DNA from: Leucoraja ocellata
Lineage: Eukaryota
Assembly: GCA_036785375.1 (NCBI GenBank)
Contig: JAWMAR010000269.1
Span: 2,418,001-2,482,000 of the forward strand
Reading direction: 5' to 3'
DNA length: 64,000 nucleotides
This document shows, in pieces, positions 1 to 63,114 of this stretch. How positions within the stretch are numbered: the first letter of the stretch is position 1; each line of letters starts with the position of its first letter. A program made the position numbers and the translations under genes. Below the pieces are notes generated by a model, which was not told the DNA's origin, searched no databases, and saw only the letters and a program-made list of their open reading frames with translations.

Positions 1-746
1 CAACTTCTTGCTTGACCAGTCCTAAGATGGAGGGAGGTCTGCCGTATGCTGGAGTTCAATAACATGGCCCGAGTGGAAGCAGGATCTACAATAGTCTAAT
101 GAGGAAATCCTGCCCCTAAACCTCCTCTTTACTTTTTGACAGCAAGCAAAGCTTTAAACAATTTTAATGTTCAGAGCTATTAAAATTGGAGTGAATCATT
201 TAAAGGAAATTAAAAATCACCTTTTTTTACAAAAACCCCACATCTGGATTAGCACAAACAGTTCTGAACATCTCATCGTGAAAAGGACACAATGGTTGAG
301 GAGAAAGTGCTCTATAGGTTTACCACTATCATAGCTGAAGTGGATTAACATGGGGGACTGCAAAATTGAGATCGCATTGACTGGATTTTAGACGGCTAAC
401 TGTTATTTAGTTGGTTTTCATACTCTATTTGAACTGATTGACATTCTAGCTCCAGTGGCCATGGTCTAAAATGAGCTAAGCCTCTTGAGAGTGATGTTAG
501 GAAACGGCAACACACAGAGAGGTTGGCAGAAATGTGAACTCTCTTCTGTGTACGAGAATTTAATCTCAGTCAGTTATTAATCTTAATACCTGAAATTGAT
601 AGAGTTTGCTCACAAAAGATATAAACCAATATTGGGAACATTGTGGCCATGTGGAGACAGGTAACACATCACCCATGACCCCACTGAGAGCGGAACAGCG
701 AGAAGAAGTTCAACACTCATATCCTCATGTCTTTTGATCTTGCATG

Positions 747-4429: not shown

Positions 4430-4600
4430 AGCTGCAGATGCTGAAAATCTGAAATTAAAACAGAACACGGTGGGAACACCCTGCAGGTCAAGCAGCGTCT
4501 GTGGAAAGCGAAATAGGTCAAAACTATTTGCCAGAGTTCCTTGTTGACAAATGCTGCCTGACCTGCTGAGTATTTCCAGCATTTTCTCTTTTTATTTACA
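4430..4600. mobile_element. Older fold-back Penelope-derived element
   Basis: ctgcagatgctg...ctgcaggtcaagcagcgtct is inverted relative to atgctgcctgacctgctgagtatttccagcattttct. Confidence 0.6.
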
Positions 4601-8102: not shown

Positions 8103-8916
8103 CCCCGCGATGGTTTTCTCGCACATGATGTGCGGGATTGTGGATTAAAGGGTCGCTGTAAAATTGACCCTAATGTACAGGGAGTGGATGATGAATTGGA
8201 ATGACATGGAGCTAGTGTGGATGGGTGATCGATAGTCGACGTGGATAGTGTTGCCAACTGTCCCGTATTAGCCTGGATATCTCGAATATTAGGCTAAATT
8301 GGTTTGTCCCATGCGGGACCACCGTTGTCCTGTATTTGACTGCTACTTCTCGGGTTGAGAAGACTGTCGGGTCGGAGTGCAGCGTCTGGCCCCACCTCAC
8401 CCGTCCCAACACAGTGCAGCCCATGGAGTGCAGCAGCAGCACCTTGCCCATGGCCCCGTCGGTCGGCAGCCCGGCCAGCTGTCTGACCTTCGCACCTTCG
8501 CTTACCGCCTACCGCCGACACCACCACCCCTCCTTCCCATGGCCAATCATCGGTTCATGAGTTGGATGGGTTGCAGGACTTTGCGTGCAGCAGAACACAA
8601 AGCCCAGCCGGTGGGCCAGTTGAGGAGCTTTGGCCCGGGCGCTGGACTTTGCGCGCGACGTTGCATGCCCCTGGCGTCCAGGCCAAAACTCTTCAGCTGG
8701 CCCGCCGACTGGGCTTTGTGTGCAGTCCAGCACCCGGGTCAACTCACCATTCACCCAACCACGGCCGAGTCGGTCAACAAAATGCCATCGGGAATTTGTC
8801 CCTTACTTTGACCTTTTGTCCCTTATTTGGGAGTGAGAAAGTTAGCAACCCTAGGCGTTGACTTCGTGGGCGGAAGGGCAAGTATCCATGCTGCATCTCT
8901 AAACTGAAACTAAACT
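8103..8916 (+). mobile_element. V-SINE/HE1-like SINE 3' half, split by the hAT MITE
   Basis: SINE body 8103-8245 resumes at 8854 and ends in ctctaaactgaaactaaact. Confidence 0.65.
8246..8853. mobile_element. Non-autonomous hAT (Blackjack-like) MITE
   Basis: TIRs tagtgttgccaact / agttagcaacccta (12/14); 8-bp TSD gacgtgga (8238-8245) / ggcgttga (8854-8861); GC-rich interior. Confidence 0.8.
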
Positions 8917-10470: not shown

Positions 10471-11397
10471 TTTTTAAATGTAAGCACTGCTGCGTTTTAG
10501 ACAAAATATGGGCGACAAATTTGTACACATTATTTCGATAATTGTATGTATGGTCAGTTCCACATTGTTGTGCATTTAGATAAGAAACAGTGTCCAGGGC
10601 ATAGTCAGAACTTGCTACAAGAAGAGAGCGAGCAAGCAGGACATTTCATGCCAATTTCAACAATGAGCGTTCTCTTAATATTGGAGAATGCTAGTTCATG
10701 CATGTGAAGCGATTACTTTCTATGATAAGACCCCGGTAAATTGATGCTTGCCATTGATGTTGAACTTTTTGTTGTTTCTTGATCCAGTGGCAGCAGTTGG
10801 AAATTGGACACATTTCACTGATGAGGCTTGAAGGAAAGTGTCTGCGAGGCACTATTGCAACACTTCCAAGACTGTACTTTCCAGTGGGGGCTATTTTTCC
10901 CCCACTTCAAACTAATTCCATGCAGCTGCATTATATTACTCAAGAACCAATGGAAAGATATGGTGGGACAAGTTTCAAATTATAAAGACTGACCCTAGTC
11001 AGAATGTGCACAAAATAACTATGTGGGGAATCAATAACAGCTATTGAGTGTTCTAGTCCAGAAATCGTACGCCTGACATTAACAAATCACATCTGCTCAG
11101 TGAAATATTGTCAGCCAGTGTTTTAGAGTGAAGCCACTAAAACCAATTATTTTGTTAAGTAAATTTAATGGAATAATCATTTGGTTCCTCTTTTTTTTCA
11201 TCCTTAATGTACTAATTATTTCATAATAAAGCTCAAAAATCCTCTTGTAACTGAACCTCAAAGTATACCCATCTATCCACTGTGTTTAGGAGTTGCATTC
11301 TATGCCATGACCTCATGCTTTTGGGTCATTGCCCCATATATTTGCAAGGCCCATGGTACTAAATCAGCAAGGGTGCAAGGAAGAGTGAAGTAAAGAT

Positions 11398-11571
11398 GTG
11401 TAGGAAGGAAATGCAGATACTGGTTTACACCAAAGATAGACACACAAACCAATTAACACGGCGGGTCAGGCAGTATCTCTGGAGAAAATGAATAGGTGAC
11501 GTCACCTATTCCTTTTCTCCAGAGATGCTGCCTGACCCGCTGAGTTACTCCAGCATTTTGTGTCCATCTTC
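11398..11571. mobile_element. Fold-back Penelope-derived element
   Basis: 40-bp arms 11461-11500 / 11501-11540 with 2 mismatches and no spacer, centred on GAC|GTC. Confidence 0.9.
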
Positions 11572-11667
11572 AGTGAAGTTAGATAATGGGTGCGTAAGAT
11601 GTTGACGTGGTTAGCCTCATGGGCAGACTGAATATCAGTGGAAAGGTTTCTGCAGAGATCTGGCACG

Positions 11668-30828: not shown

Positions 30829-32529
30829 TTGGCTGTAGTGTAGGTTTTCCAACATACCGTGTGTACTGACTGACTGAATATATGTTTTTGATAGTTAGAT
30901 GAGCAATGCCGGATTTATGGATATTTATTTTTAATGCTGCTTAACTGATCCACTGGGATCCACATCCATTTTTCTGGAAATCCACAGAGCTAACTCCTAG
31001 CAGATATTGTTTGAATTAATTTTTATGAAATCCTCAATATCATGGCTGTCAGCCCACTCGACTAGAAAAGTGCTGAATATTTTAAGGATGGAAATTGTGC
31101 AGAAGTTAAACATAATTGTTTCTTTGGATGGTGGTCTGTGCGAATTGAGAGGCAATATCTTATTTACTAGAACATTTGGTTGGCATCAGTTGCCTAGATT
31201 GAGCTGGCATTTGTCAAACTATATGTACCACCCATTCCCTCTGGTGTTTTGTTAATAATACTAGGTTACCTCAGCAATAATCAATAAAAGTGTACCTGAG
31301 GCATGCAACTTGTTTCAAAGTAACATCATGGCAAGGGTTAACCCCAAGCAAGATCTCTGCCCCTCTAAGGCCAAAATAAATTCATTTCATTAAGATAATT
31401 GCTGCAAAAAACGACCATTTGAGGGGCTTTTTAACTGTGGTGGGAAGTCTTAGCACTTTTTACTCTTACTTCAGGAGATTGGTGTGATTTATGTTAGTTT
31501 GAATACAAAGATAACTTGGTCAATGCACCAGCAAACGTTAAGGCAGTGGGAAGTTCCAGTTTTTATGTGTGTGTGTGTGTATTACTGACTCTAATATGTT
31601 TACTGGGATCAGTTAACATGGAGGATCAAAGGTGCACTCCTAATAGAAATCTACCCGTAACTGCATCCAGATCTTTGAGAAAGTCGTGCAGCAGGATTTC
31701 TCCTGGAACAGTTCCTCACCGTGGAGTAACTTGAGAGTCTGGGACTTCTGTTGGAGAAGGAGATGGTGTTCACATCATGCCGTGTAGGAGCCCAGCCTGA
31801 GATCCCCGAACAGGGATCCAAGGTATCTTCTCAGTGCTTGCTTTGGATTGGAATAATCTCATTTTCCTATGCCCTTTGACAATTTTTTAATTTAGATGAA
31901 CCTTAATACAGACAGAAAAACTCAGCCTTTGTCCTCTTATTGAATTCAGTTGACAATTGGTGGGATTTACAAATATTATTCAGCTCGTACTTTTGGAAAT
32001 GATTAAAAAAATCATGTTTGTTTATATATTTTTGGTCTTGCCTCCTGTAAACTTTCAGAAATCTGGAGGAGAGCACATGGAAAATCCCGAGATTCTCACG
32101 TCCTGGTCACTTAAAGGTTTGGCCCTGTTATAGAATCATAGGAAACGTAGAATAAAGACATTGGCCATTTGGCCGACTGAACCTATTCTCGTGGAGAGCT
32201 ACATATTCTGGTCACAACATCTCGCTGTAGGTCAATGACTCTGCAGGTTGCAGCTGCTCAGAGGCACAGCAGAAGATGTTTTGAATGTGATTGAGGGTGT
32301 CTGCCTCTCTCACCCCCTAGGGCCATGAGAACCATATGCCTATTACCCTCTAAATGAAAAGAATGCTCCTCTAATTTTATGACTAATTATTTAAAATCTA
32401 TGCTTCAAGTCATCTAATTAACAAAATTTTACGATTTACCATCGCAGTATAATTAAACCCTTGGTCAGTAGGGATCTGTTTACATGAGAATACAATCACA
32501 CTTGACCAAAACAAATATTACTGTAGATG

Positions 32530-32758
32530 GACACAAAATACTGGAGTAACTCAGCGGGACGGGCAGCATCTCTGGAGAGAAGGAATGGGTGCGGTTCGGA
32601 TTGAGACCCTTCTTCAGACTGATGAAGTCTAAAGAAGGGTCTTGACCCAAAACACCACCCATTCCTTCTCTCCAGAGATGCTGCCTGTCAACCTGAGTTA
32701 CTCCAGCATTATGTGTCTATCTTCGGTTTAAACCAGCATCTGCAGTTTCTTCCTACAC
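32530..32758. mobile_element. Fold-back Penelope-derived element with two opposed hammerhead-like motifs
   Basis: Arms ~32530-32620 and ~32626-32717 are reverse complements around a few-nt spacer; both hammerhead copies are degenerate. Confidence 0.9.
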
Positions 32759-33149
32759 AATTATCGTGGATGGTCTCAGTCAACTGTTTTTCTATCTGTA
32801 TTAAGGTGCATCTCAATTTTAAAAATGTCCATCGGCATAGGAAAATTAAATTGCTCCAATCTAAAGCAAGCACTGATGCAGATATCGTCGATGAAATAGT
32901 CTCTCCACATCTTGAAAATTCAATGCAAAGTGATCTGCTCATTTGTTTTTCCAATAATCCTGCATGTCACCCATTTTTCGACGTCTTAATCTTTGGGAAG
33001 AAGTCTTTAAGAATAATTTACAGCTTCTGGATTTGTGTTGTTAGTCAGGGGCAGTAACAATGAGACATCATGGCCTACTGACAAATGGCTTCCAATCAAT
33101 AACTAGATAACACTTGCTTAGAGACCTGATTTTACTCCGCAGATAACAA

Positions 33150-37920: not shown

Positions 37921-38729
37921 CAGGTGCACAACCTTTTATCCGAAAGCCTTGGGACCAGACACTTCTCGGATTTCGGAATTTTTCGGATTTCCGAATGGAA
38001 GATTTTTAGCTTAGATTAGGTAGGTATCGCGGGCGGCTTGAAAAGTCTGGAGCGGCTGCCTCCTCCCCGGAGATCGGGGAATCGCCCGCAGCCCCAGCTC
38101 CGCGATGTTGGGAGTCGGCGGCGTCGCAGCGCTGGGATACCAGCGGGGAGCGGGCAATGCCTTACCGGGTCGCCGTGCAGTAAGCTCCGGAGTGCTGTGG
38201 CCGCTGACACACAACATCGTGGAGCTGGGGATGCGAGCGTCCGGCCGCGGGCCACGGGCCGCGCTGGATTTGGAGCACCGCGCAGCCAGGGGTAGAGTTG
38301 CTGGGGTCGGAGCTACAACCGGCACCGTCCGCGGCCGTACGCCCGCAGCCCCAGCTCCGCGATGTTGGGAGTCGGTGGCCACAGCGCTCTGCAGCTTACT
38401 GCACGGCGACCCAGTAAGGCATTGCCCGCTCCCCGCCTCTCCGACCAGGTAAGGGACTAAGAATTAAAGTCCCCCCCCCCTTCACATAAAAGCCCTCCAA
38501 ACTAACTGACTAACATTTAAGCAATGATTTACAGATGTTTAAGTGTCTCCCCGGTCTCTGGGGAGGAGGCAGCCGCTACAGTAGTACAGACCTGGGTTGA
38601 CCGTGGGTCGTTTCGGGTCAAGTTTGGCGCCAAACGCGAGTTTTGGTGTGCAGACGACATCCTGGAAAAAATGTCTGGTTTTCGGAGCTTTCCGGTTTCC
38701 AGAACTCCGGATAAAAGGTTGTGCACCTG
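37921..38729. mobile_element. Tc1/mariner (Tigger/pogo-like) MITE, young
   Basis: Perfect 22-bp TIR CAGGTGCACAACCTTTTATCCG (37921-37942 / 38708-38729); TA on both sides; CpG-rich interior; no transposase. Confidence 0.92.
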
Positions 38730-43934: not shown

Positions 43935-45043
43935 AGTTTAAGAGGGAACTGCAGATGCTGGAGAATCGAAGGTTACACAGAAAAGCTGGAGAAACTCAGC
44001 GGGTGCAGCAGCATCTATGGAGCGAAGGAAATAGGCAACGTTTCGGGCCGAAACCCTTCTTCAGACTGATCAGGGGTGGGGGTGGGTGGGGACAAGAAAG
44101 GGAAAAGGAGGAGTAGCCGGAAGGCTGGAGGGTGGGAGGAGAAGGCTGGAGGGTGGGAGGAGACAGCAGGGGAGCTGAGGAAGGGGAGGAGACAGCAAGG
44201 ACTAACAGAATTGGGAGAAGTCGATGTTCATGCCCCCGGGGTGCAGACTCCCCAAACGGAATATGAGGTGCTGTTCCTCCAATTTCCGGTGCTGCTCGCT
44301 GTGGCCATGGAGGAGACCCAGGACAGAGAGGTCGGAGGCGGAGTGGGAGGGGGAGTTGAAGTGCTGAGCCACCGGGAGGTCAGCTAGGTTATTGCGGACC
44401 GAGCGGAGGTGTTCGGCGAAACGATCGCCCAACCTCCGCTTGGTCTCACCGATATAGATCTGCTGACATCTAGAGCAGCGGACGCAATAGATGAGGTTGG
44501 AAGAGATGCAGGTAAACCTCTGTCGCACCTGGAACGATTGCTTGGGTCCCTGAACGGAGTTGAGGGGGGAGGTAAAGGGACAAGTGTTGCATCTCCTGCG
44601 GCCGCAAGGGAAAGTGCCCGGGGAGGGGGTGGACCGAGAGGGAAGGGAAGAATTGACAAGGGAGTTATGGAGGGAGCGGTCTTTGCGGAAGGCAGATATG
44701 GGGGGAGATGGGAAGATGTGGCTAGTAGTGGGGTCACGTTGGAGGTGGCGAAACTGACGGAGGATTATTTTTTGTATGTGATGGCTGGTGGGGTGAAAGG
44801 TGAGGACTAGGGGGACTCGGCCCTTGTTGCGAGTGCGGGGATGGGGAGAGAGAGCAGTGTTGCGGGGTATGGAAGAGACCCTGGTGCGAGCCTCATTTAT
44901 GGTGGAGGAGGGGAACCCCCGTTCCCTGAATAGTGAGGACATTTCAGATGTCCTGGTGTGGAACGCCTCATCCGTGGAGCAGATGCGGCGTAGACGGAGG
45001 AATTGGGAGTAGGGGATGGAGTCCTTACAGGAAGTAGGGTGGG
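43935..45043 (-). mobile_element. 5'-truncated Penelope-like element (Neptune-type): RT C-terminus, Cys linker, GIY-YIG endonuclease and hammerhead-bearing 3' end
   Basis: ORF 44202-45137: HPTSCKDSIPYSQFLRLRRICS...CGRRRCNTC...NLIYCVRCSRCQQIYIGETKRRLGDRFAEH...VAQHF...EEQHLIFRLGSLHPGGMN; similarity is lost beyond ~45043. Confidence 0.93.
44037..44064 (-). ncRNA. Minimal hammerhead ribozyme motif in the Penelope 3' end
   Basis: Minus strand CTGAAGA-A-GGGT(TTCG)GCCC-GAAA-CG-TT. Confidence 0.75.
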
Positions 45044-45323
45044 TAGCCTCTGTCAATTGAATCCTATGTAAACGATGTGTTTGTATGTTAGTTTCTTCCA
45101 ATGATCGCTTGTCAGTCTGTGGCTGTCCCTCTTGCACTTAAAAATGCCTCGTCCATTGTAGAACTTCTCCCATTTTCATTTCCATTGAAAGCAGACAGAT
45201 TCAATACTGAGCTGCCAATGGGCAAAGCAAGTTAAATGTCTCAGCGGTTCATTCGGTGGAGCATCTCTTTAGTTTGTCAAGGAAAATAGGCTTTTCCTCA
45301 TACGGACTGTTCTGGGTGACTTA

Positions 45324-49914: not shown

Positions 49915-50246
49915 ATACAAATTAGAAACAGGTGCCAGGCATTCTGTTCCTCATGCCTACTCAGTTATTCAATAAAATTGTAGCTGGTCTGATTTTAACC
50001 TCAAACCCGCATTGCTACCTCCTGCCTTTCACCCTTTTGCTTAACAATTATCCATTTACCACTACCTTATAAATATTCACCCCCTTTAGGGATGAGAATT
50101 CCAAAGAGTCTTATTCTCCTGAGTGAAAATAAAGCAACTCATTGCTATCTTAAACGAGTGACCTTATTTTTAAGTAGTGACACCTAGTTCTACAAGAGGA
50201 AGCAATTCATCCACATCCACCCTGACAATACCCTTCAGGATTTTGT
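49915..50246 (-). mobile_element. Old CR1-like LINE 3' fragment
   Basis: Degenerate reverse tail (ttcaataaaattgtagctggtctg...gagaattccaaagagtc). Confidence 0.5.
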
Positions 50247-50400
50247 GCAAGAAAGAACTGCAGATGCTGGTTTACACTGAAGATGGACACAAAATGCTGG
50301 AGTAGCTCAACGGGTCAGGCAGCATCTCTGGATCAGCCTGATAAACGGTCTCAACCCGAAACGTCACCTATTCATTTTCTACAGAGATGCTGCTTGTCCC
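50247..50400. mobile_element. Fold-back Penelope-derived element
   Basis: Minus arm 50247-50331, then a plus-strand degenerate hammerhead at 50338-50366 and tail; flanks cccttcaggattttgt / cctttcaagattttgt. Confidence 0.8.
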
Positions 50401-51866
50401 CCTTTCAAGATTTTGTACTTTTTGAGTCATTTGTCACTATTAGTAATATCAAAATAAATATTACATTTCTGATCTTCTTGGCATGGAGTACCTTTGGATG
50501 CAGCGGGCTTACACATTTATTCTACTCTATATCTTTCAGCCACTGTATGTGGCAAGTGGAAGTCAAGAAAAATAGAATTGTTTTCATATTAATGAAACCT
50601 ATTACAGCTTTCCACTGCCTTACTCAAAATGGAAGATAACTACTAATACAAAGAAGAAATATTTCAGAGAAACAAAATTGTTTGTGCATTTGAGATAGCA
50701 GAGATTAATTCCATTCACCTAATGTCCTATGTCAGTGAATTTCAAGTATGCAGGAATAGATTTTGAAAATAGAATTTCTGCAAAATGTTTACTTATTTTG
50801 TGATTGTTCTGCTGAATTGTATAACTTGCTGCATTCTCTGGTGTCCTTCCAGGTTATTAACTGCAGTAAAGGACTTAGCACTTATATAGGTTGCCACTAA
50901 GTATGGCATCAATTTCAATATGTGTTAATGTTTAATATTGACTATTGGTCATTTAATACCTCTTCCTCAGCAGTCTGCAGTGGTTCAACTTTATCTCTAT
51001 ATAACCTATTGATAAAAGTGAAAAAAAAAACTCCAGAATGTGAGGCCAGCAGGTTAAGTCTCTAAGAGTTTTATCATTCTGTCAAACCAGTCAAGTCCTA
51101 TGCTTTTGATGTGAGGCATATATATATTTCATGGCCCAATCACAATTTCACATGTTCAAAGCATATCACAAATTCCTACAAAGTGCTATCTGGCTTTTTT
51201 TTTAATATCCATGTAAAGGTAAGTGTTCAGGATTTGTAGAAATGTGGCTCACCCCTTCACTGTGACCAAGTTCAATGGATCAGAAAGGGTTCATTGAAAA
51301 TCCACTTGAGCACAGCACAGCAACAATATAACCGTAGAATGTAAGTTTTATCACTGGGCCTTCATGGAAGTAAGGGTTGTAATAATAGTCAATGATTATT
51401 CAATAACTTGCATCCATAAAGAAACATGTACAATGTCAAAAGATATCCGAATGTGCTCAGTAACTGCAAAAGGAAGAAACGAGAATAAAGCCAATCCTTA
51501 GAAAAATATTTGGAACAGGATTTGGTCACATGCTCCGGCTCCCATTTCCTCATTAAGTACATGCATTAAATTTTAGATATATAATCCCCCCATTTAAAAG
51601 ATGGATTCAGAATTGTTTAGAAAGGTTTTAAGCTTTTGGCTGTTGATATTGCCATTGCAATTTCTGCTGAATAGACTGGACAAGGCTTGAATTTTTCACT
51701 CATTTTGGTTGTGTTAGGGGGTGTAATATCATCATCGTAACGTTGCTACAGGCAAAAGCAAAATTGTATTTCTTTAATGAACTGCAACTTAATTGGAAAT
51801 GAACAAATAATGTATACCAGCTGCCCATCCAAAGTTCCCAGTCACTTGACTGCCAGGTCCACTACA

Positions 51867-52010
51867 AAGACAGACACAAAATGCTGGAGTAACTCAGCGG
51901 GACAGGAGGAATGGGTGACGTATCAGGGTGGAGCCCCTTCTTCAGAGTTACTACAACATTTTGTGTCTGTCTTTGGTTTAAACCAGCATCTGTAATTCCC
52001 TCATACACAA
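51867..52010. mobile_element. Fold-back Penelope-derived element
   Basis: aaagacagacacaaaatgctggagtaactc is inverted as gagttactacaacattttgtgtctgtcttt; flanks gtccactaca / gtctactaca. Confidence 0.8.
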
Positions 52011-54327
52011 GTCTACTACATATGTGACTGGTCAGTGGTTAACGCATTTTAAGCACACCTGAAACAATGCTTTAGTTAACACAGTGAAACATTTTGCCAG
52101 CTCAGGGTTTTATCAATGTTAAATAATATACTTTCTAAGAAGATCTACTGGAATATTTTTTCAGTTATTACCATCAGCAAATCAAAAAAAGATTCAAACC
52201 CAAATTGTAGATGAAATAAACTCTAAAATATACAGGAATGTAACTGTTACTCTGTCCCTACTTGATGCACAAAACAGCCCTGAACAATACAGGGGTGATT
52301 GTGAGATGTCTGACAAACCTACCCACATGTACTGTGCTGACATGGAAACTCCATGTTTCTTACATTTATTCTGATCCCCAAAATGAGAAAGAAAGCTGAG
52401 AAACAGCACAACATGCAAGAGAGATTTTAAACAAAACTTTTGTTTGGGAAGAGAAAAGGAGGAAAACAGGGAATGACAGGGAAGGTATGCAGGTTGCAGG
52501 TCTGTTGTATGTTTACATGGTTGAAGTGCATATTGCACGAGGTTAGGGTTTATTTTTAAGTATTCATTGTAATGTAATTAAATGCAATTGCAGTCATAAA
52601 CTAATGTTTGAAAAGCTTTATTAATGATCGTAATGTAAAAATGACTCTTGTGTGAATAGAAAATGTAGAAATTTAATAGAAAATTATCTCTGCTGGGAAA
52701 TTTCCCTGCGCTGTGCAATCTTTTATTTTGACTAATCTTATTTAGGTTATTTTACTGGGGACAAAATTGGACTGGGGTAGTTTTGCGTGATTTGCCCGGT
52801 GCCCTGTTAATGCAGTGCTGGTCTCTCATTGTTGTGATTCCTGCAGCCATGAGCATTCTTCATGCTATTGATTTCCTGATGACCTAACCGCAGAGCTTAA
52901 TTCCATCATTGGCTGGCATCAATTTCAGCACTGATTAAAGCCAACCCACTCCTTGAAGGGGAGATGCATTGTAGCTGAAACCAGTGGGGAAATCACTTTT
53001 AACACTTGTTGGAACTGATAGCAGAACATGAGTGAGCATGGATACCCAAATGGGTCTCCACTGTGATCGATATGCGCAGCAGCTGAGGTGGGCTGGTGGT
53101 TGAGGGAATGATTATAATGACTTAATCCCGACTCCTGGTTCATTGGATTGAATCAATCCACATATAAATGCATTGGTATTGTTCGTAAAGTGCCAGGTAG
53201 TGTTTATACCAAGCAGAATCAACAGTGTAATTGTTAGACTGTTGAGTATGATATAAACTTAGCTGTTACTGTTGTAATAGATTACTTCCAGTTCCATAAA
53301 TCATTTCATGCTTAAAAGCAAAGAAAGAAATTGGAAGGGAGTAATTAATTTTCGAGACCTACTACATAATTGAGAACATGCTGTCAAATTTGTACGAGTT
53401 AATTTAATTTCTCCTTGACTCCCTAAGAATTCTATTGACATGTTTTTAAAAGAGCTTTCTACTACACCTGGCTGGGGGATCAACTTTTATGTACTTTAAT
53501 TACTGAAAAGAAATCTCTAAAGAGAGCTATTATAGCCAGGATCCGATTTGACCTGACAAATGAATAAGAATTACCCCCAAAAAGTCTTACGACAACAAGC
53601 TTTAATTGGGGATCTATTGGGAGATGTTTCAAAAAGAAAGATGAATTCTGCATAAAATCATTGCAGTTTGATTTTTTTTAAATTCAATTTGATTGCACAA
53701 TGTCATTTTTATATTCACATAAAAATATGATAGCTGGTTTGGACTTACTGCCATCTTCTCCACTGATATTTATAGCTAACACTATGACGTTTATAGGGAT
53801 GGCTGAGTTATATGATAATGCTACGTAGGCTTAATTTTTGATGTATTAAATGCAGGTCATTTTAATCTGATCCGGGAACTTTATAATGGTTTTACTCATT
53901 AAAAAATATTGTTAATGGAAGTGCTTGTTTATTGTTTAAACTCCCTGAATCATTTATAAGATCTGCATACTCAATGGGAAGATGTCACCCATTCAAGAGA
54001 GGTTGTTTTGTTCTATAGAGGGCTTTGAATATACCTAGCAAAAATATGAATAGAGCAAAATCCTATAAGGTTTATTCTATACAAGGTATGAGCAGAGGTA
54101 CTGTTTAAAAATAAACCTAACACATATTTGGCCCAAATTACAGATCGCTATGATTTGAACTTCCTTTGCGGTAATAAATCTAATTTGTACATCGAGCATG
54201 TGGGCAAATTAGTTGGAATAGTTGTGAAACAGCATCTATGGACACACCCACTCCCACCAAGAATGAGAATAGGATAGAGAGTGCACAGATTCTCATATGC
54301 AACAGTGGGGATCCTGGTGGAATAGAT

Positions 54328-54505: not shown

Positions 54506-57174
54506 TGGCAGGTTAATCCACAAAGATTTTTGCTATCTCCCGAGCTCCTTGCATGTACAATTTCAGAGGACTTTACTTCTGAACTTTTGGTTGTGACCTC
54601 CAGCATTTCTGTTAAGAACTGTGGACGATGTGGTTTGGAATACTGGTATCCCAGACCTGCTATTTACAGGGCAGTTTAATCTTAGTGACTACTCGGGGAA
54701 CAGGAGATAAACTCTCCATTTGCAATTGTAAACCCATCTTCAAACTCTCATCTTCTCCTTTATAATGAAACTCTTAGGTTGAGGAAGATTTATTTCCACT
54801 CTGACTTAGTGCATTCTGAGATGGCTGTTGAACCCAATGTGGGAACTGCAAGTTCTTCCAGAGACAGGGGATGCTTGACTGGGGCACATGGATAAGTGGT
54901 TTTTGAGATGGTTCACTCTTGCCATTGCCTATGTATGTGTGCTCCCAATGCAAGGCATCAAAGTTCCCAATACTACAGTGAATGACATTTCTTTCCTCTG
55001 AGTGGTCAAGAGGCAGGAAAATCAAGTCCAACAAGCCTTCTATCTTTTCCTTTGCATAGCTGCAAAGTCCTTCCAATGAAAGGGCTCGGGGTAGAATGTC
55101 TGTTTTTGGTGTCCTATGCCGGGCATATGAACAACATGGCCAGCACTGTATGTTGGGTCTCAAAGCTGTAATGTTAGCCGAGGAGTGGACACTGAAATTG
55201 GTTGCTAATCCATTCAGTGAATTTGTAGGATATTGCAGAAAGAACCATCATGGTATCTTTTCAACCTGCTGTTGTTAGACCAAGTTCCAGAAGCATATAG
55301 GAGGGTAGGGATCATTGCTAACTGGTAGACCATGTGTTTTCTGCCAAGTCTGAGATGTTAATCTTTAAACACCTCTTCCGACAGTCAACGAAAGACTGTG
55401 GTTTCCAAGATACGGCAAGAGGTCCTTTTTTTCTAAAGTCCTGCCTTGAACCTTTACTGCCAGCAGGCAATGTGTTGCAGCAAGGGCAGTTTAATGAAGG
55501 ACTCTTATCTTGTGAATGTTCAGTGTTACACTGGCAACTGTTGGATTTTGGGTACCTATAAAGGCCATCCACAATATTGAATGTTTCAATGCTGATTTTG
55601 GTGTCAGGGGATTTGTCAACTGCAGCCATAGTTGCAATTCATAGCTTGATACAGCCAGAAAACTAATCTTCCGACCCTTTAAATCTGCACTGACCATCAA
55701 ATGCCCATCTACAATCATGGCTTTTAAGAAAAATTCTTCTTACATTCTCAACAACTCACTTGCACTCTATGGATAATTTACAGTGGCTAATCAACTTACC
55801 ATCTTCTCCATAGTTTCATGATCTTCTTTGTAGTTCTAATGTAAAACAAATAGAGTTTTGCAGTGTTTTGCTCTAATACTGATACAATAGTAAATAATTT
55901 TGAATGATACTTAGTCGGAAATTAATAAGCCCTGTCATTTACTGGGCAAATAATACATGAAAGCAAAGATGTAGAGGGTTTTTTGAGAAAGCGTAATGAA
56001 ACATAGTAAAAATGGAAGAAAAGGCGACTCTAATCCCTATGCTCTAAATTATGAATTTACTTTTTTTATACCAGAAAATTAATCATGGTTCAGAACTAAA
56101 ATTTCTGAGGCAGTATCGCGTTTTACTGTTTTTCCAGAATATCTAGTAATTGAAAATGCAGAAGAATTGAATTTAATATATTCCATGTGTGTGCTCTCCA
56201 AATCTATTCTCTGTGGAGACTTGCAAACAAACACTAGACCACCATTCAGAGATTCAAATCCCCTTAATTCAAGACAGTTTTCTTTCCTGAGAGTCAATAG
56301 ACTGTCCATACTGCATGGGACAGAGGAAATCGTAAAGATGATTATCCTTCACATTACCGCTACTATTCTTCATGAAGAAATGGCACTACATTGAGAGTCA
56401 CTGCATATAACTTCTGAACAATGTATTGAGAAATGTTCTTCATGGTCCACAGTCTCCTTCACTTCACAACAGATGATGTCAATGCTGCAGACTGTTTTGA
56501 CTGGAGCAAATCGTTTTCCCTTGTCAAGGCAAGGTGATGGCCAATGGTAAAAAAAACAATATAGAGGTCGATGAGGCATTGGAAGTTATTTTGTGGACAT
56601 TGATCTGTCAAAGACATGGACTGAGATGTGGTGCAGAATATGTTTTATAGAATGTACTTTATCTCTGCATTTACATTTCCAATCAGTTCAAGGCAGGTAA
56701 TTCTTTCTATGAGTGCAAATGAGACGTAAAGTCTGGATAAGGTTTATCTTCTGATGTTGGTCCAGGCAGCTCCACACTCTCGCTCCGCAGCATTTAGGAG
56801 AGAGATAAGGTCATCAAAATGCTCCAGCAGTTCTTTAGGCTTTCTAGAGATCTTGGTAAAGCAATCATACTCAGTGAGACCTCTGGTATGTTAAAACAAA
56901 TGCAGCTGGAATTAAATACATTAGGTAGCTTCTTCAAAACATGTTGTGGAATTTAGCTTCTCAGGATGTGCTGCCTCCCCCTAGCTTCTGATTTTAATCT
57001 GCTCCTTTAAGCATTTCGGAAACTGGGAATTCTTAGTTATTCAAAGGAAAAATGGGCGAAATGTTGGGTTTTGATGAGAGATGGGTTATGAAGGGAAGGT
57101 GCGTGTTTGCACCATTTATGGCTTGGAGATGCAGAGGTTATGGTATGAAGAGGAAATGGGATACGAAAAGGGAA

Positions 57175-58330
57175 AGGAACACAAAATGCAGGAGTAACTC
57201 AATGGGTCAGGCACCATCCCTGGAAAAAATGGATCAGTGACATTTCGGGTCAGGTCCCTTCTTCAGACTGATTGTAGTAAGGAGAGTGGGGGGGGGGCTA
57301 AAAACAGGAGAAATCAGGGCCAGCAACAGTTGACCTCAGGCAAGACGGTTGTCTGATAGGCCAATTGTGGGCTAGAGACAAGTGTGAGCCCAAGAGGGAT
57401 ACATAGTTGTCAACTGTGGAGACTTTTACTGGAGGGGGGAGGGTGAAGAGGGAGCTGTTGATGGAAGTTACAAAAAAAGTAATATCCAACATTCATACTG
57501 CTAGGGTGTAGGCTACCCGTGAAATATGAGGTGCTGCTCCTCCAATTTGTATGTGGCCTCATTCTAGCAATGCAGGCGGTCCAGAACAGAAAGGTCATTA
57601 TGGGAATGGGAAGGGGAGTTAAAGTGGCTGCCAACTGGAAGATCCAGTAGGCCTTGGCGGACCAAACTCATGTGTTCAGCAAAACGGTCTACGCTTGGTG
57701 TCACCAATGTACAGGAGCCCACATCGGGAACACCAAATGCAGTAGATGAAGTTAGAGGAGGTATGTGTGTATCTCTGTCTCACCTGGAAGGATTGCTGGG
57801 ACCCCTGTAGGGAGTCAAGGGAGGAGGTATAAGTACAGGTGTTGCATCTCCTGTGGTTGTAGGGAAAAATATCTGGGGAGGGGGTGGTTTGAGTGGGAAG
57901 GGATGTGTGAACCAAGGAGTTGCGGAGGAAGCAGTCTCTAAGCGAGGTGGAGATAGGAAGATATGATTAGTGGTGGGATCTCGTTGGAGGTGATGGAAAT
58001 GTCAGAGGATGATATGTTGGATGCAGAGGCTGGTTGGGTGTCAGAAGACCAGAGGAACTCTGTCCTTGTTGTCTCTGGGGATAGAGGGAGTGAGTGTAGA
58101 ACTCCGAGACACAGAAGAGACATGAGTGATGGAACCATCTATGGCAACTGGGAGGGAAACCAGGTTTTCTAAAGAATGAGGAAATCTTCGATGTATGGAA
58201 AGCCTCTTCTTGGGAGCAGCTGTGGCAGAGACAGAGGAATTGAGAGTCGGGGATAGCATCTTTGCAAGAGGCAGGGTGGGAGGAGGTGTAGCCAAGATAA
58301 CTGTGGGGGTTGGTAGGTATTGTAGATCAG
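57175..58330 (-). mobile_element. Degenerate Penelope-like (Neptune-type) element with hammerhead motif
   Basis: Frameshifted ORFs 57410-58372 (RRCNTC, NFIYCIWCSRCGLLYIGDTKRR, NKDRVPLV) homologous to 44202-45043; minus strand 57238-57266 CTGAAGAAGGGACCTGACCCGAAATGTCA. Confidence 0.88.
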
Positions 58331-59851: not shown

Positions 59852-59941
59852 TGGGGAAGAGAAGGGGTGGGGAGGGCAGAGGTCGGGGGGTGTGAGAGGT
59901 GGGGGGTTGGGGGGGGCGGGGGGGGGGGGGGGGGGGGGTGG
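59852..59941 (+). repeat. G-run cluster / poly-G tract
   Basis: Multiple G3-G7 runs and a long G homopolymer. Confidence 0.9.
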
Positions 59942-60004
59942 AGTCATATTTTGTGCCAATGTTGCAGATTTCTGTTCTGGTTCAATTTTTACCAATTACA
60001 ATGT

Positions 60005-60025
60005 CCGTCTTAATTTATGTTTCAG
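60005..60025 (+). promoter_or_regulatory. 3' splice acceptor of the TSHZ2 large exon
   Basis: T-rich tract ending ttatgtttcAG directly before tt-TAT-GTC-CCC-GAA-GAA, where teashirt homology begins. Confidence 0.9.
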
Positions 60026-63000
60026 TTTATGTCCCCGAAGAAGACTTAAAGACGGGAGAACTGAGAGAAGGAGAAGATGGCAACCCTTCTGCAGAGGAGT
60101 TACAAGGCAATGGTTACATGTGCACGGAGGAAGAGGAGGAGGAAGAGGAAGACAGCAAAGGCAGCTACAGTTACCAGAATTCCCCAATTAGTGCAATGTC
60201 CAACCAAGATGCAGAGTGCGAGTCGCACATAAGTGATACCAGTGATAGGTTGGCTGATTTTAAAAGTATTTCTTCCCGGGACGGGCAAGAAAAGGAAGAG
60301 CAGTCGAATGGAGAGACGAAGAATGGCCAACAGAACAGTTTGGGGGCAATGAGAGCCGTTTATGCTAGCTTTCTCTCCGATTCGTATTGGTCAAGTCTAG
60401 GCTTTGACCTCAAACAATCAAAGGCTGAAAGGACGAGCTGCAAAAGCAGCAATGAGAGCACCAAAAGTAGCTTTGATTGGCACCAAGATGCATTATCCAA
60501 AACATTTCAACAGACCTCCTCTTGCAGACCCATGCCGAAACCAAATCTTTTCAGTTCGGTGCAGTTGTACAGGCAAAATAACAAGTTGTTTGGGACTGTT
60601 TTCACAGGCGCCAGTAGGTTTCGCTGCAAAGAATGCAGTGCAGCATATGACACTTTGGTAGAACTAACCGTGCACATGAATGACACAGGCCATTACCAAG
60701 ACAATAACCACAAAAAAAAATTGGACCACAACACCAGTTGGACAAAGTCACGGAAACGAGCCTTGCAGGATATGGATGGTATGCATGATGCCCAGAAAGT
60801 GTTAAAGTGCATGTACTGTGGTCATTCTTTTGAGTCCCTTCAAGATTTGAGCGTTCATATGATTAAAACAAAACATTACCAGAAAGTGCCTCTGAAGGAA
60901 CCAATGCCACCAATCGGATCAAAGTTAGTCCCTCCCACTAAAAAGCGGGCCCAGCATGAAGTCAATCAGCCTTGTTCACCGGATTCAACCACTGGAGTTG
61001 CAGGGACATTCACAGGCGAAGCACACAAGAATTCAAACCCCTACGTGTCGTCTAACAATCGGTACGGTTATCAAAATGGCGCCAGCTACACCTGGCAATT
61101 TGAAGCCTGCAAGTCGCAAATTCTGAAGTGCATGGAATGCGGAAGCTCTCATGATACCCTGCAGCAACTCACAGCCCACATGATGGTGACGGGGCACTTC
61201 CTTAAGGTAACAAACTCTGCATCGAAAAAGGGAAAGCAGATTGTTTTTGACCCTTTGGCCATGGACAAAGCCCAGTCCATCACAGAAGCACCGTCAAACG
61301 AGATCCAGCCTCTGGCACCAGTCAGCAAATTGCCGCCAGATTCCTTAACTCCACCCGCGGTTGAAGATAACAAAGGTGAAGAAAAGCAAGAGATAACAGA
61401 GAACGTGGAGAAATCACCTCAAGACAAAGACGATTGCAAGGGGGACAATCCAGAGAAGATGTTTGGCTCCACGCTTCAATATCAATACATAAGAGAAGAA
61501 GATCTGGAGGAGAGCTCGAAAGGAGGTGGTGACATTCTCAAGTCACTTGAAAACACTGTTGCTTCAGCCATCAACAAAGCCCAAACTGGGAGTCCCAGCT
61601 GGAGTGCATATCCCAGCATCCATGCTGCCTACCAGCTTCCAGGAATCATTAAGCCTATGCAACTTGGTACTCAGATATTGCAAGTTAAGCCAAACCTGAA
61701 ACCTATAGCTCCAAAAGTCAGGTATTTCTCTGTAATTACAAGCAGCCAAAACCAAGGGCTTCAGTCCAACAATGACCAAATCAAGGAGGAGCCAATTAGC
61801 CCGGTTCACGAACAGATTTCATCCAAGCTGGAAGAAAGCAATATCGAGAAAAAGGATCCAAAGTTAAACCTCCAGTCTGCGCTGCTTTTGTCATGTAAAA
61901 AGGAAAGTGAGAGCCCAATAAAGTCAGAGACCCTCACTGATCTCCCAAAGGCAGACTCGCCTTGTTTGAAAGAAGCTGAAGAAGTGAAGCAAATCTTCAA
62001 GAACGAGCCTGTAAAGAGTGAAGCAGGATCTCCAAATTTTTCTTTAACCAATGGATGTTCTGGACTAACAGTCATCACAGATCACCCATCTGAACACCTT
62101 TCAGTCAGCCCACTTAGTGCACTGCAGTCGATAATGAATACTCACCTTGGCAAAGCGGCCAAGCCCCTGACCTCAAACCTAGACCCTGTAACGATGCTTT
62201 GTAGACTCAATAAGAGCCTGCTGGAGAAATCAGCTTCACCGCCAAGTTTAATAAAGCCATCCAATATTGCTAATAGTTATTACTACGAAAGCAGTGATCA
62301 GCCAATAGATCTCACCAAATCGAAGAGTGGCAAGGCCATCCACTCAAACGCTATCAAACCCTTTACTTCGTTACCTTCCAAACACGTGCTATCTGATATT
62401 GCTGATATGGTAAAGGTCCTCCCAAAAGGTACGACACCAAAACCTTCTACCTCATCAAAGATGTCAGCGGAAAGGTTAGAGACCGACGTGAGGAGCTTTG
62501 AAGATGTGTCAATGGATTTTTTACCTGTTCAGAAACGAAAAGGTAGGCAGTCAAACTGGAATCCACAACATCTTCTTATTCTGCAGGCCCAATTTGCTGC
62601 CAGTCTGTGGCAAACAGGAGAAGGCAAATATTTATTATCTGATCTAGGTCCACAAGACCGAATGCATATTTCAAAGTTTACTGGACTCACCATGACCACC
62701 ATAAGTCACTGGCTTGCCAATGTAAAATATCAATTGAGAAAGACAGGTGGAACGAAGTTCCTTAAGAACTTAGATACAGGGCATCCAATTTTCTACTGCA
62801 ATGATTGTGCCTCCCAGTTTAGGACTCCTTCCAGTTATATTGGTCATTTGGAATTCCATTTGGGCTTCACTATGAAAGATATGGCAAAGATTTCTGTACA
62901 GCATGCAAGAGGGGAGCAAGAAGTTTCAAAGGTGTCATCTGAGAAGTCAGTGAGACCAACTGTAGCAGATGAGGACACAGGCAGCAAGTTCCAGTGTAAT

Positions 63001-63114
63001 CTGTGCAAACGAACTTTTGCTAGCAAGCATGCAGTAAAACTGCATCTCAGCAAAACACATGGGAAATCACCAGAGAATCATTCGCAGTATGTAACTGAAA
63101 TAGAGGAAGAGTAG
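60026..63114 (+). CDS. TSHZ2: Teashirt zinc-finger homeobox 2, large coding exon (1028 full codons plus a split first codon; the short N-terminal exon is not identified in the window)
   Basis: The ORF 59899-63114 has three teashirt-type C2H2 fingers (FRCKECSAAYDTLVELTVHMNDTGH, LKCMYCGHSFESLQDLSVHMIKTKH, LKCMECGSSHDTLQQLTAHMMVTGH), a PIDLT CtBP-type motif (62302-62316), an atypical homeodomain (RKGRQSNWNPQHLLILQAQF...HWLANVKYQLRK) and two C-terminal C2H2 fingers. FDWHQDALSK, GASRFRC, SYTWQFEACKSQ and the HSQYVTEIEEE end fit TSHZ2 better than TSHZ1/3 as I recall them. The exon starts after tttcag (AG 60024-60025) in phase 1, then YVPEE. Confidence 0.95.

Follow-up and report, generated by a model that had tools for sequence, protein, structure and literature searches.

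What is the palindrome?

How does a palindrome with no spacer at all come to be folded exactly on the ACGT word of a hammerhead ribozyme, and does the ribozyme have anything to do with it? The short answer is that the palindrome at 11384-11584 of the window (by which we mean the whole 64-kb stretch of DNA analysed) is two short pLTR ends of one Penelope-like retrotransposon (PLE), inserted head to head, and that it represents a rare variant of a structure that is itself very common. The locus is an old, probably inert transposon remnant of a described type.

Re-measurement bore out the description in an earlier note on this DNA, with 40-bp arms (11461-11500 and 11501-11540) that carry two mismatches, meet without a spacer at GGTGAC|GTCACC and both lack the CTGA..GAAA core. 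The ungapped inverted repeat reaches 47 nt at 91% identity with 0 nt separating its arms, a gapped alignment takes the left arm over 11398-11500 and the right arm over 11501 to about 11575, and the palindrome is the top-scoring short-loop inverted repeat among the three detected in the window. Its DNA fold of -52.4 kcal/mol (z -10.6) was equalled by none of 200 shuffles.

We number from the AC|GT boundary as 0, with its G at +1, the predicted hammerhead cut after +3 and the first C of CUGA at -25. On this scale the long and more diverged arm (11398..11500, minus strand) is the 3' end of the pLTR from +1 to about +105, including a tail of some 35 nt (about 11398-11430), and the short arm (11501..11575, plus strand) is the same pLTR end from +1 to about +72, without the tail. 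Both 5' ends face the centre, in head-to-head orientation, and the self-complementary ACGT word (11499..11502) is common to the two arms as a 4-nt overlap, as expected from the earlier suggestion that it works as a microhomology. The hammerhead consensus, with no core present in cis, places the predicted scissile bond after GUC at 11503..11504 on the plus strand, mirrored at 11498/11497 on the minus strand. A target-site duplication (TSD) of 13-14 nt surrounds the whole, its left copy AGTGAAGTAAAGAT at 11384..11397 and its right copy AGTGAAGTTAGAT at 11572..11584 (both plus strand), the latter overlapped by the last bases of the short arm. These flanks read as first reported, and the pair scores 8, which 2.6% of 3000 mismatched flank pairs also reach.

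To which element do the arms belong?

The repeat is abundant in the window, where a tight pattern finds seven cores of the element's type (CTGAAGA..CCCGAAACGT), and intact copies carry this core just upstream of ACGT, in agreement with the earlier claim that the element encodes a minimal hammerhead. The best comparator is a 5'-truncated PLE at 43961..45137 (minus strand), which holds the end of a 311-aa ORF with a GIY-YIG-type endonuclease (44202-45137, minus), a pyrimidine-rich spacer, an intact hammerhead core (44038-44064, minus) and a related pLTR end with a tail. Pfam gave no match for the 311-aa fragment alone; longer relatives of the ORF match PF00078 and, in some cases, also PF01541. 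A 61% hit in a shark accords with a host that looks like a cartilaginous fish. A core lies at most 420 nt downstream in 39 of 48 matches to the ORF end (one locus being entered twice), several of them with the subfamily sequence of the palindrome. Since the core repeat follows ORF ends whose relatives carry RT and GIY-YIG domains, the arms are, as judged by homology, PLE pLTR ends, that is, the 3' terminal repeat of an element whose ORF is predicted to encode an RT with a C-terminal GIY-YIG domain.

The locus has the further marks of an EN+ PLE pLTR: the tail is at one end only (+105 vs +72), and an inverted, 5'-truncated copy adjoins at the 5' end, with a TSD. Neighbouring arms in 1.91 Mb of sampled sequence are head to head in 247 cases (74 of them targeted) vs 26 tail to tail. 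The hammerhead motif in the pLTR is present family-wide and deleted at the palindrome. Between RT and EN the ORF shows a C-x4-C-x2-C linker, and this Cys-rich linker may point to the Neptune clade. Neptune elements are described with a Zn-finger-like linker between RT and EN in the portion of PMC8557442 available to us.

Another PLE ORF end, followed by its pLTR but in a more decayed state, lies at 57174-57976 (minus), where ACTGAT after GUC can pair with an upstream ATCAGT into a 6-bp helix I. An intron-like stretch separates the ORF end from the hammerhead at 44065-44202 (minus) and at many other loci. The stop codon is overlapped by a GT that resembles a splice donor (many copies read AG|GTAG or AA|GTAA), after which come 95-240 pyrimidine-rich nucleotides and then CAG|TCTGAAG at -27/-26. 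The stretch is absent from no ORF-linked copy seen, and most short copies start at this point, at -25..-30. The TCAGT at that boundary resembles an initiator, and a cDNA would become G-rich just upstream of it.

Is the palindrome real, and how old is it?

Fold-back reads can produce spacer-less palindromes, and a sequencing or assembly artefact therefore has to be considered. We regard this as exceedingly improbable, because the arms differ from each other, end unequally and are bounded by a TSD, and because a second copy in the assembly (C131, L197) has an identical junction with private substitutions. In addition, contigs running from flank to arm were found on both sides in four of four sequencing runs labelled as four other organisms, although none listed in those runs spans the centre. 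Since these runs carry other organism labels, the insertion is old. No empty site was found; in the assembly the flank has a single further copy, which is filled, as are all four runs. No RNA data set was among those listed as containing the sequence.

Compared with the window (11431-11499 region), the C131 copy differs at seven positions of the 103-nt left arm, four of which lie no more than 12 nt from the centre; its right arm is unchanged, and 134 nt of left flank show one difference. This lopsided distribution would reflect uneven erosion or repair of a perfect hairpin. Many matches in this assembly are doubled, on the same contig or on two, and near-identical (for example on C9, C29, C31, C64, C148 and C191), and the genome counts given below include such duplicates.

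How common are such junctions?

The window holds further head-to-head pairs (32520-32760, 50244-50403, 51867-52020 and about 4464-4597), whose junctions differ. The first (32520..32760), which serves as a comparator, keeps both hammerhead cores, with the short arm on the left and the tail arm on the right. The exact 22-nt centre of the palindrome occurs at 63 places in the genome (control, 0), and we ruled out one master palindrome copied as a unit, since the flanks are distinct at 14 of the 15 loci retrieved and the ACGT junction is found in at least three subfamily sequence types.

Searching genome-wide for two fixed 14-nt anchors separated by 0-74 nt gave 8507 anchored pairs, 176 with spacers of 0-19, 1246 of 20-44 and 7085 of 45-74. 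A spacer of 32, the length of the ACGT junction, was found at 118 places vs about 47 for each of the 24 remaining lengths in that bin; by eye, 27 of the 50 matches listed were ACGT-centred, four of them apparent duplicates. Scaled from these, about 64 pairs, or at most 0.75% of the 8507, are ACGT-centred, an upper bound because spacers above 74 nt are uncounted. At spacer 66 there are 760 places, and 41 of the 50 listed join -27 to -10 through GAC (about 620 when scaled), so that this 3-nt join upstream is roughly tenfold commoner than the ACGT join. In the GAC class the arm that reaches -27 is tail-less in 9 of 11 pairs, tailed in one and ambiguous in one. The -27/-10 GAC join is also the commonest single junction that we saw (L105, L106, L029 and L066 are examples).

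A sample of 1.91 Mb, made up of the window, 75 targeted loci and 120 evenly spaced 10-kb stretches of large contigs, contains 1167 arms and 247 pairs, of which 170 are unselected once the 74 targeted pairs and three others (a duplicated locus or an overlap of more than 40 nt) are set aside. None of the 170 is ACGT-centred. Their centres concentrate at -36..-15, and in 104 of them the further arm ends at -34..-23. The ACGT junction is thus a real but minor peak among PLE pairs. The earlier note had proposed a histogram of fold-back centres, with a peak at GAC|GTC as support for a mechanistic link; the distribution is indeed non-uniform and has a small local ACGT peak, but its bulk lies at -36..-15. 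The even grid alone contains 92 clean pairs in 1.2 Mb, which scales to about 260,000 in an assembly that seems to contain many loci twice.

Other self-complementary words likewise give spacer-less or near-perfect palindromes, GGAA|TTCC in 5 of 50 listed anchored pairs (by eye) and a 15-nt quasi-palindrome in 4 of the 170. In a second subfamily, near-perfect palindromes are repeatedly built on the 15-nt quasi-palindrome of helix II (L071:144, L071:4546 and L049:2300), and a single palindrome, L023:288, sits on a CAG-N-CTG word where the core begins.

What do the ends of the arms tell us?

The 3' ends of the arms are bimodal, at +66..73 and +101..105, and the two classes are combined in a regular manner. 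Among the 170 unselected pairs, 131 have one long arm, 37 have none and two have two, where about 27 with two would be expected under independence (Fisher P 1e-17); put otherwise, exactly one tail is found in 131 of the 133 pairs with any long arm. TSDs, mostly of 11-17 nt, score at least 8 in 21 of 36 ACGT pairs, 19 of 37 other anchored pairs and 71 of 170 unselected pairs (null, 2.6%), so that by TSD the ACGT class looks like the remaining pairs, with 15 of its 36 falling short of the threshold.

Extra bases rather than an overlap lie between the arms in 88 of the 170 pairs. The 82 direct joins overlap by at least 3 nt in 50 cases (vs 41% of blunt-join controls) and by at least 5 nt in 40 (vs 28%), the null at 1 nt or more being already high (71%). 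Both 5' polarities occur, the tail-less arm reaching further in 71 pairs and the tail arm in 38; strict filters leave 37 vs 19 (P 0.02), and requiring a TSD leaves 24 vs 15 (P 0.2). Subfamily marks agree within pairs at 35/35, 29/31, 23/27 and 26/26 sites, where shuffles average 20.9, 16.2, 6.8 and 14.9, a concordance that fits one RNA, subfamilies active at different times, or self-priming.

How might the two arms have been joined?

We think it probable that the palindrome arose in one PLE insertion, in which two cDNAs were primed from the opposite strands of a staggered cut and joined through ACGT. The endonuclease would nick both target strands, with about 11-17 nt between the nicks; one 3' end would prime RT at about +105 and the other at about +70, with uncleaved RNA as template; both cDNAs would extend 5'-ward, usually to -25..-33; and the 3' end of one would anneal to a complementary word in the other, after which each would be filled in. 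Joins would therefore fall where the element has inverted microhomology, and two cDNAs that both stopped at, or were trimmed to, ACGT would give a spacer-less product with both cores gone. This mechanism is read from end products, no intermediate having been observed, and it starts from observed features, namely the identity and orientation of the arms, the tail beside a short arm, the TSD, the 4-nt overlap, the recurrence across subfamilies and the minority status of the class. Two opposite-strand cDNAs with microhomology would fit all of the tails, TSDs, overlaps, joins at self-complementary words and both polarities.

A competing reading is self-priming, in which one strand, the first cDNA or an antisense RNA template, folds back on 1-2 bp and a non-templated base closes the ACGT loop. 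The shared subfamily marks, far above shuffles, are what it would predict, as is the asymmetry of most junctions, with a loop left over, and it is how junction palindromes are interpreted in the part of PMC3846280 that we could consult. Two cDNAs copied from a single RNA, or subfamilies that were active at different times, would produce the same concordance, and in the ACGT class the arms differ at the C/T +7 site in 4 of 20 pairs. Either form of self-priming predicts a single polarity, yet 71 and 38 pairs of the two polarities are seen. The earlier suggestion of a simple cDNA snap-back fails at this point, since a target-primed snap-back cannot add a tail that is missing from its template arm, and 71 of the 109 unequal pairs would demand just that. 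Two fixed 3' ends plus a TSD would also need an added cut. A zero-loop 4-bp fold is sterically impossible within one strand and possible between two, and the loop-free 4-nt ACGT overlap therefore favours two strands. All told, we consider self-priming unlikely.

We are equally sceptical of later deletion, in which the insertion had both cores and slippage or repair between the direct-repeat ACGT words flanking the inner hairpin removed the centre. Hairpins stimulate deletion between short direct repeats, so the process is an established one, and possible precursors exist, ACGT being kept on both arms in 106 of the 170 unselected pairs, with a precursor-like example at 32520-32760. Against this, ACGT pairs are not older, their pooled arm-to-arm mismatch being 0.087 (n=36) vs 0.100 (n=37) in other anchored pairs, in sets that are imperfectly matched because 15 of the 36 were picked by a different pattern. 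The second assembly copy has the identical junction, and the commonest junction class is polarised by the tail arm, which points to joining at insertion: later deletion would not favour the tail-less arm at -27 in 9 of 11 GAC-class pairs, a test that is silent on the ACGT class because that class is symmetric. The loss of both cores from a double-hammerhead unit by later deletion, one of two routes offered in the earlier note, lacks positive support and seems to us unlikely.

To return to the two cDNAs, we would tentatively go further and picture PLE integration as coordinated twin priming, a possibility to which we give somewhat less than even weight. Here a dimeric RT-endonuclease would use one RNA, start sites 35 nt apart and two nicked strands, with a leading, tail-less cDNA that extends to a set 5' limit immediately upstream of the hammerhead, a lagging, tailed cDNA made by strand displacement, and a microhomology join. 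If this were true, the zero-loop ACGT palindromes would be direct proof of two cDNAs, as opposed to the published self-priming, and the mechanism could be read out naturally from the roughly 10^5 pairs in the genome.

Does the ribozyme matter?

It is very unlikely that cDNA stops, and with them the joins, are positioned by the hammerhead cleavage site or by an ACGU:ACGU dimer of the ribozyme. The excess at spacer 32 (118 vs about 47 per length) is a local ACGT peak of the kind that this idea calls for, and minimal hammerheads have been proposed to dimerise via the ACGU palindrome (PMC4209133, seen in part). However, the palindrome is centred on the ACGT axis, as the earlier note had it, and not on the cleavage point, the bond after GUC lying 3 nt further 3' on each strand. 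Cleaved RNA would begin at +4 and so could not template the GAC of GAC|GTC. For a palindrome with the cut at its centre there is one match, with one mismatch, vs 48 for ACGT at equal length and tolerance; the proposed link between cleavage site and integration is not supported. Anchored arms have their 5' ends at +4 in 2 of 163 cases and at +3 in 4, vs 69 at -25..-30; the identity profile has no step at +3/+4; neighbouring microhomology joins are as common as ACGT or commoner; and ribozyme mutants insert normally in vitro (PMC11167929, seen in part), so that cleavage is dispensable there. The cleavage form of the idea is largely refuted, and its variant, an effect of the hammerhead dimer on RT pausing, seems to us improbable. 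This removes an attractive but unsupported tie between ribozyme cleavage and integration, and we infer that the ribozyme is relevant only through helix III, which supplies the ACGT word.

An active ribozyme, with a CUGANGA...GAAA core and helices I-III, is not to be had at the locus, where the core is absent, and Rfam found no hammerhead there, only sub-threshold miRNA hairpins. A microRNA precursor was rejected on its scores (43.5 and 37 bits vs thresholds of 140 and 184) and a loop length of 0, these being generic hairpin matches. Minimum-energy folds of three intact monomers were all non-hammerhead, with z near 0, a result that carries little information because the motif is proposed to function as a dimer.

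How does this compare with known systems?

The head-to-head structure is already known. In the sections of PMC3846280 that we could consult, Adineta Pen2a and Pen3a have inverted pLTRs with a 15-bp overlap and 18- and 38-bp palindromes at the junctions, a 30-40 bp tail (31 bp is given) on one arm and TSDs of 8-10 bp, and the junction palindromes are ascribed to self-priming on an antisense template; the portion of PMC8557442 available to us gives a general head-to-head pLTR scheme and calls the origin of the inversion undefined. The skate pairs resemble Pen2a/Pen3a in their head-to-head pLTRs, junction palindrome or overlap, one-arm tail and TSD, and differ in having very short arms, no ORF between them and TSDs mostly of 11-17 nt. 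They also number on the order of 10^5, so that junction classes can be counted, and these counts favour two cDNAs over the self-priming of PMC3846280.

For Poseidon from Anolis, PMC11167929, in the text open to us, reports in vitro that two RT start sites bound the tail, that both target strands are cut and extended, that the start site is equal on the two strands and that uncleaved RNA is used, with a hammerhead in the pLTR. Our bimodal 3' ends resemble its two start sites, and our ORF differs in its Cys-rich linker. The parts of that text available to us contain neither an origin for inverted junctions nor a one-long-one-short rule, which identical start sites on both strands leave unexplained.

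In L1 twin priming two cDNAs are primed by the target, an inversion results, the join shows microhomology and a TSD is made, all of which have counterparts in our reading. The arms of L1 copy different parts of the RNA, whereas here both copy +1..+70, which would require either a pair of RNA templates or strand displacement along a single one.

Minimal type I PLE hammerheads have palindromic positions 15.2-16.2 in helix III, and dual opposite-strand motifs are mentioned, in the portion of PMC4209133 that we saw; our intact copies match these with CUGANGA, an extra base before helix II, GAAA, ACGU and GUC, unlike the palindrome, which is coreless on both arms and has no ribozyme in cis. Non-LTR retrozymes, which in the accessible part of 10.64898/2026.07.22.740005 are head-to-tail tandem units with complete hammerheads, are also short repeats that derive from PLEs and carry a type I hammerhead, and were rejected as an identity for the locus, which has no tandem array and whose arms are inverted and coreless.

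In the open texts of the main articles, supplements aside, we found no count of PLE junction classes and no twin priming invoked for PLE inversions, and neither our junction-class count nor the one-tail rule was found in print. The rule narrows down how PLE inversions could form, and together with both polarities and the zero-loop joins it favours two coordinated cDNAs, which is testable in the existing in vitro system. The locus is valuable because it gives access to a large natural dataset on PLE insertion.

What else lies in the window?

A 1072-aa open frame with C2H2 zinc fingers occupies 59896-63114 (plus strand) and resembles the large exon of genes of the teashirt family; if it is one, the long first intron of that gene may contain the palindrome. 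Two other GC-rich inverted repeats, at 8595-8721 (51-nt arms, 25-nt loop) and 38143-38436 (108-nt arms, 78-nt spacer), are unrelated to the PLE, as judged by an inverted-repeat and element pattern search of the window.
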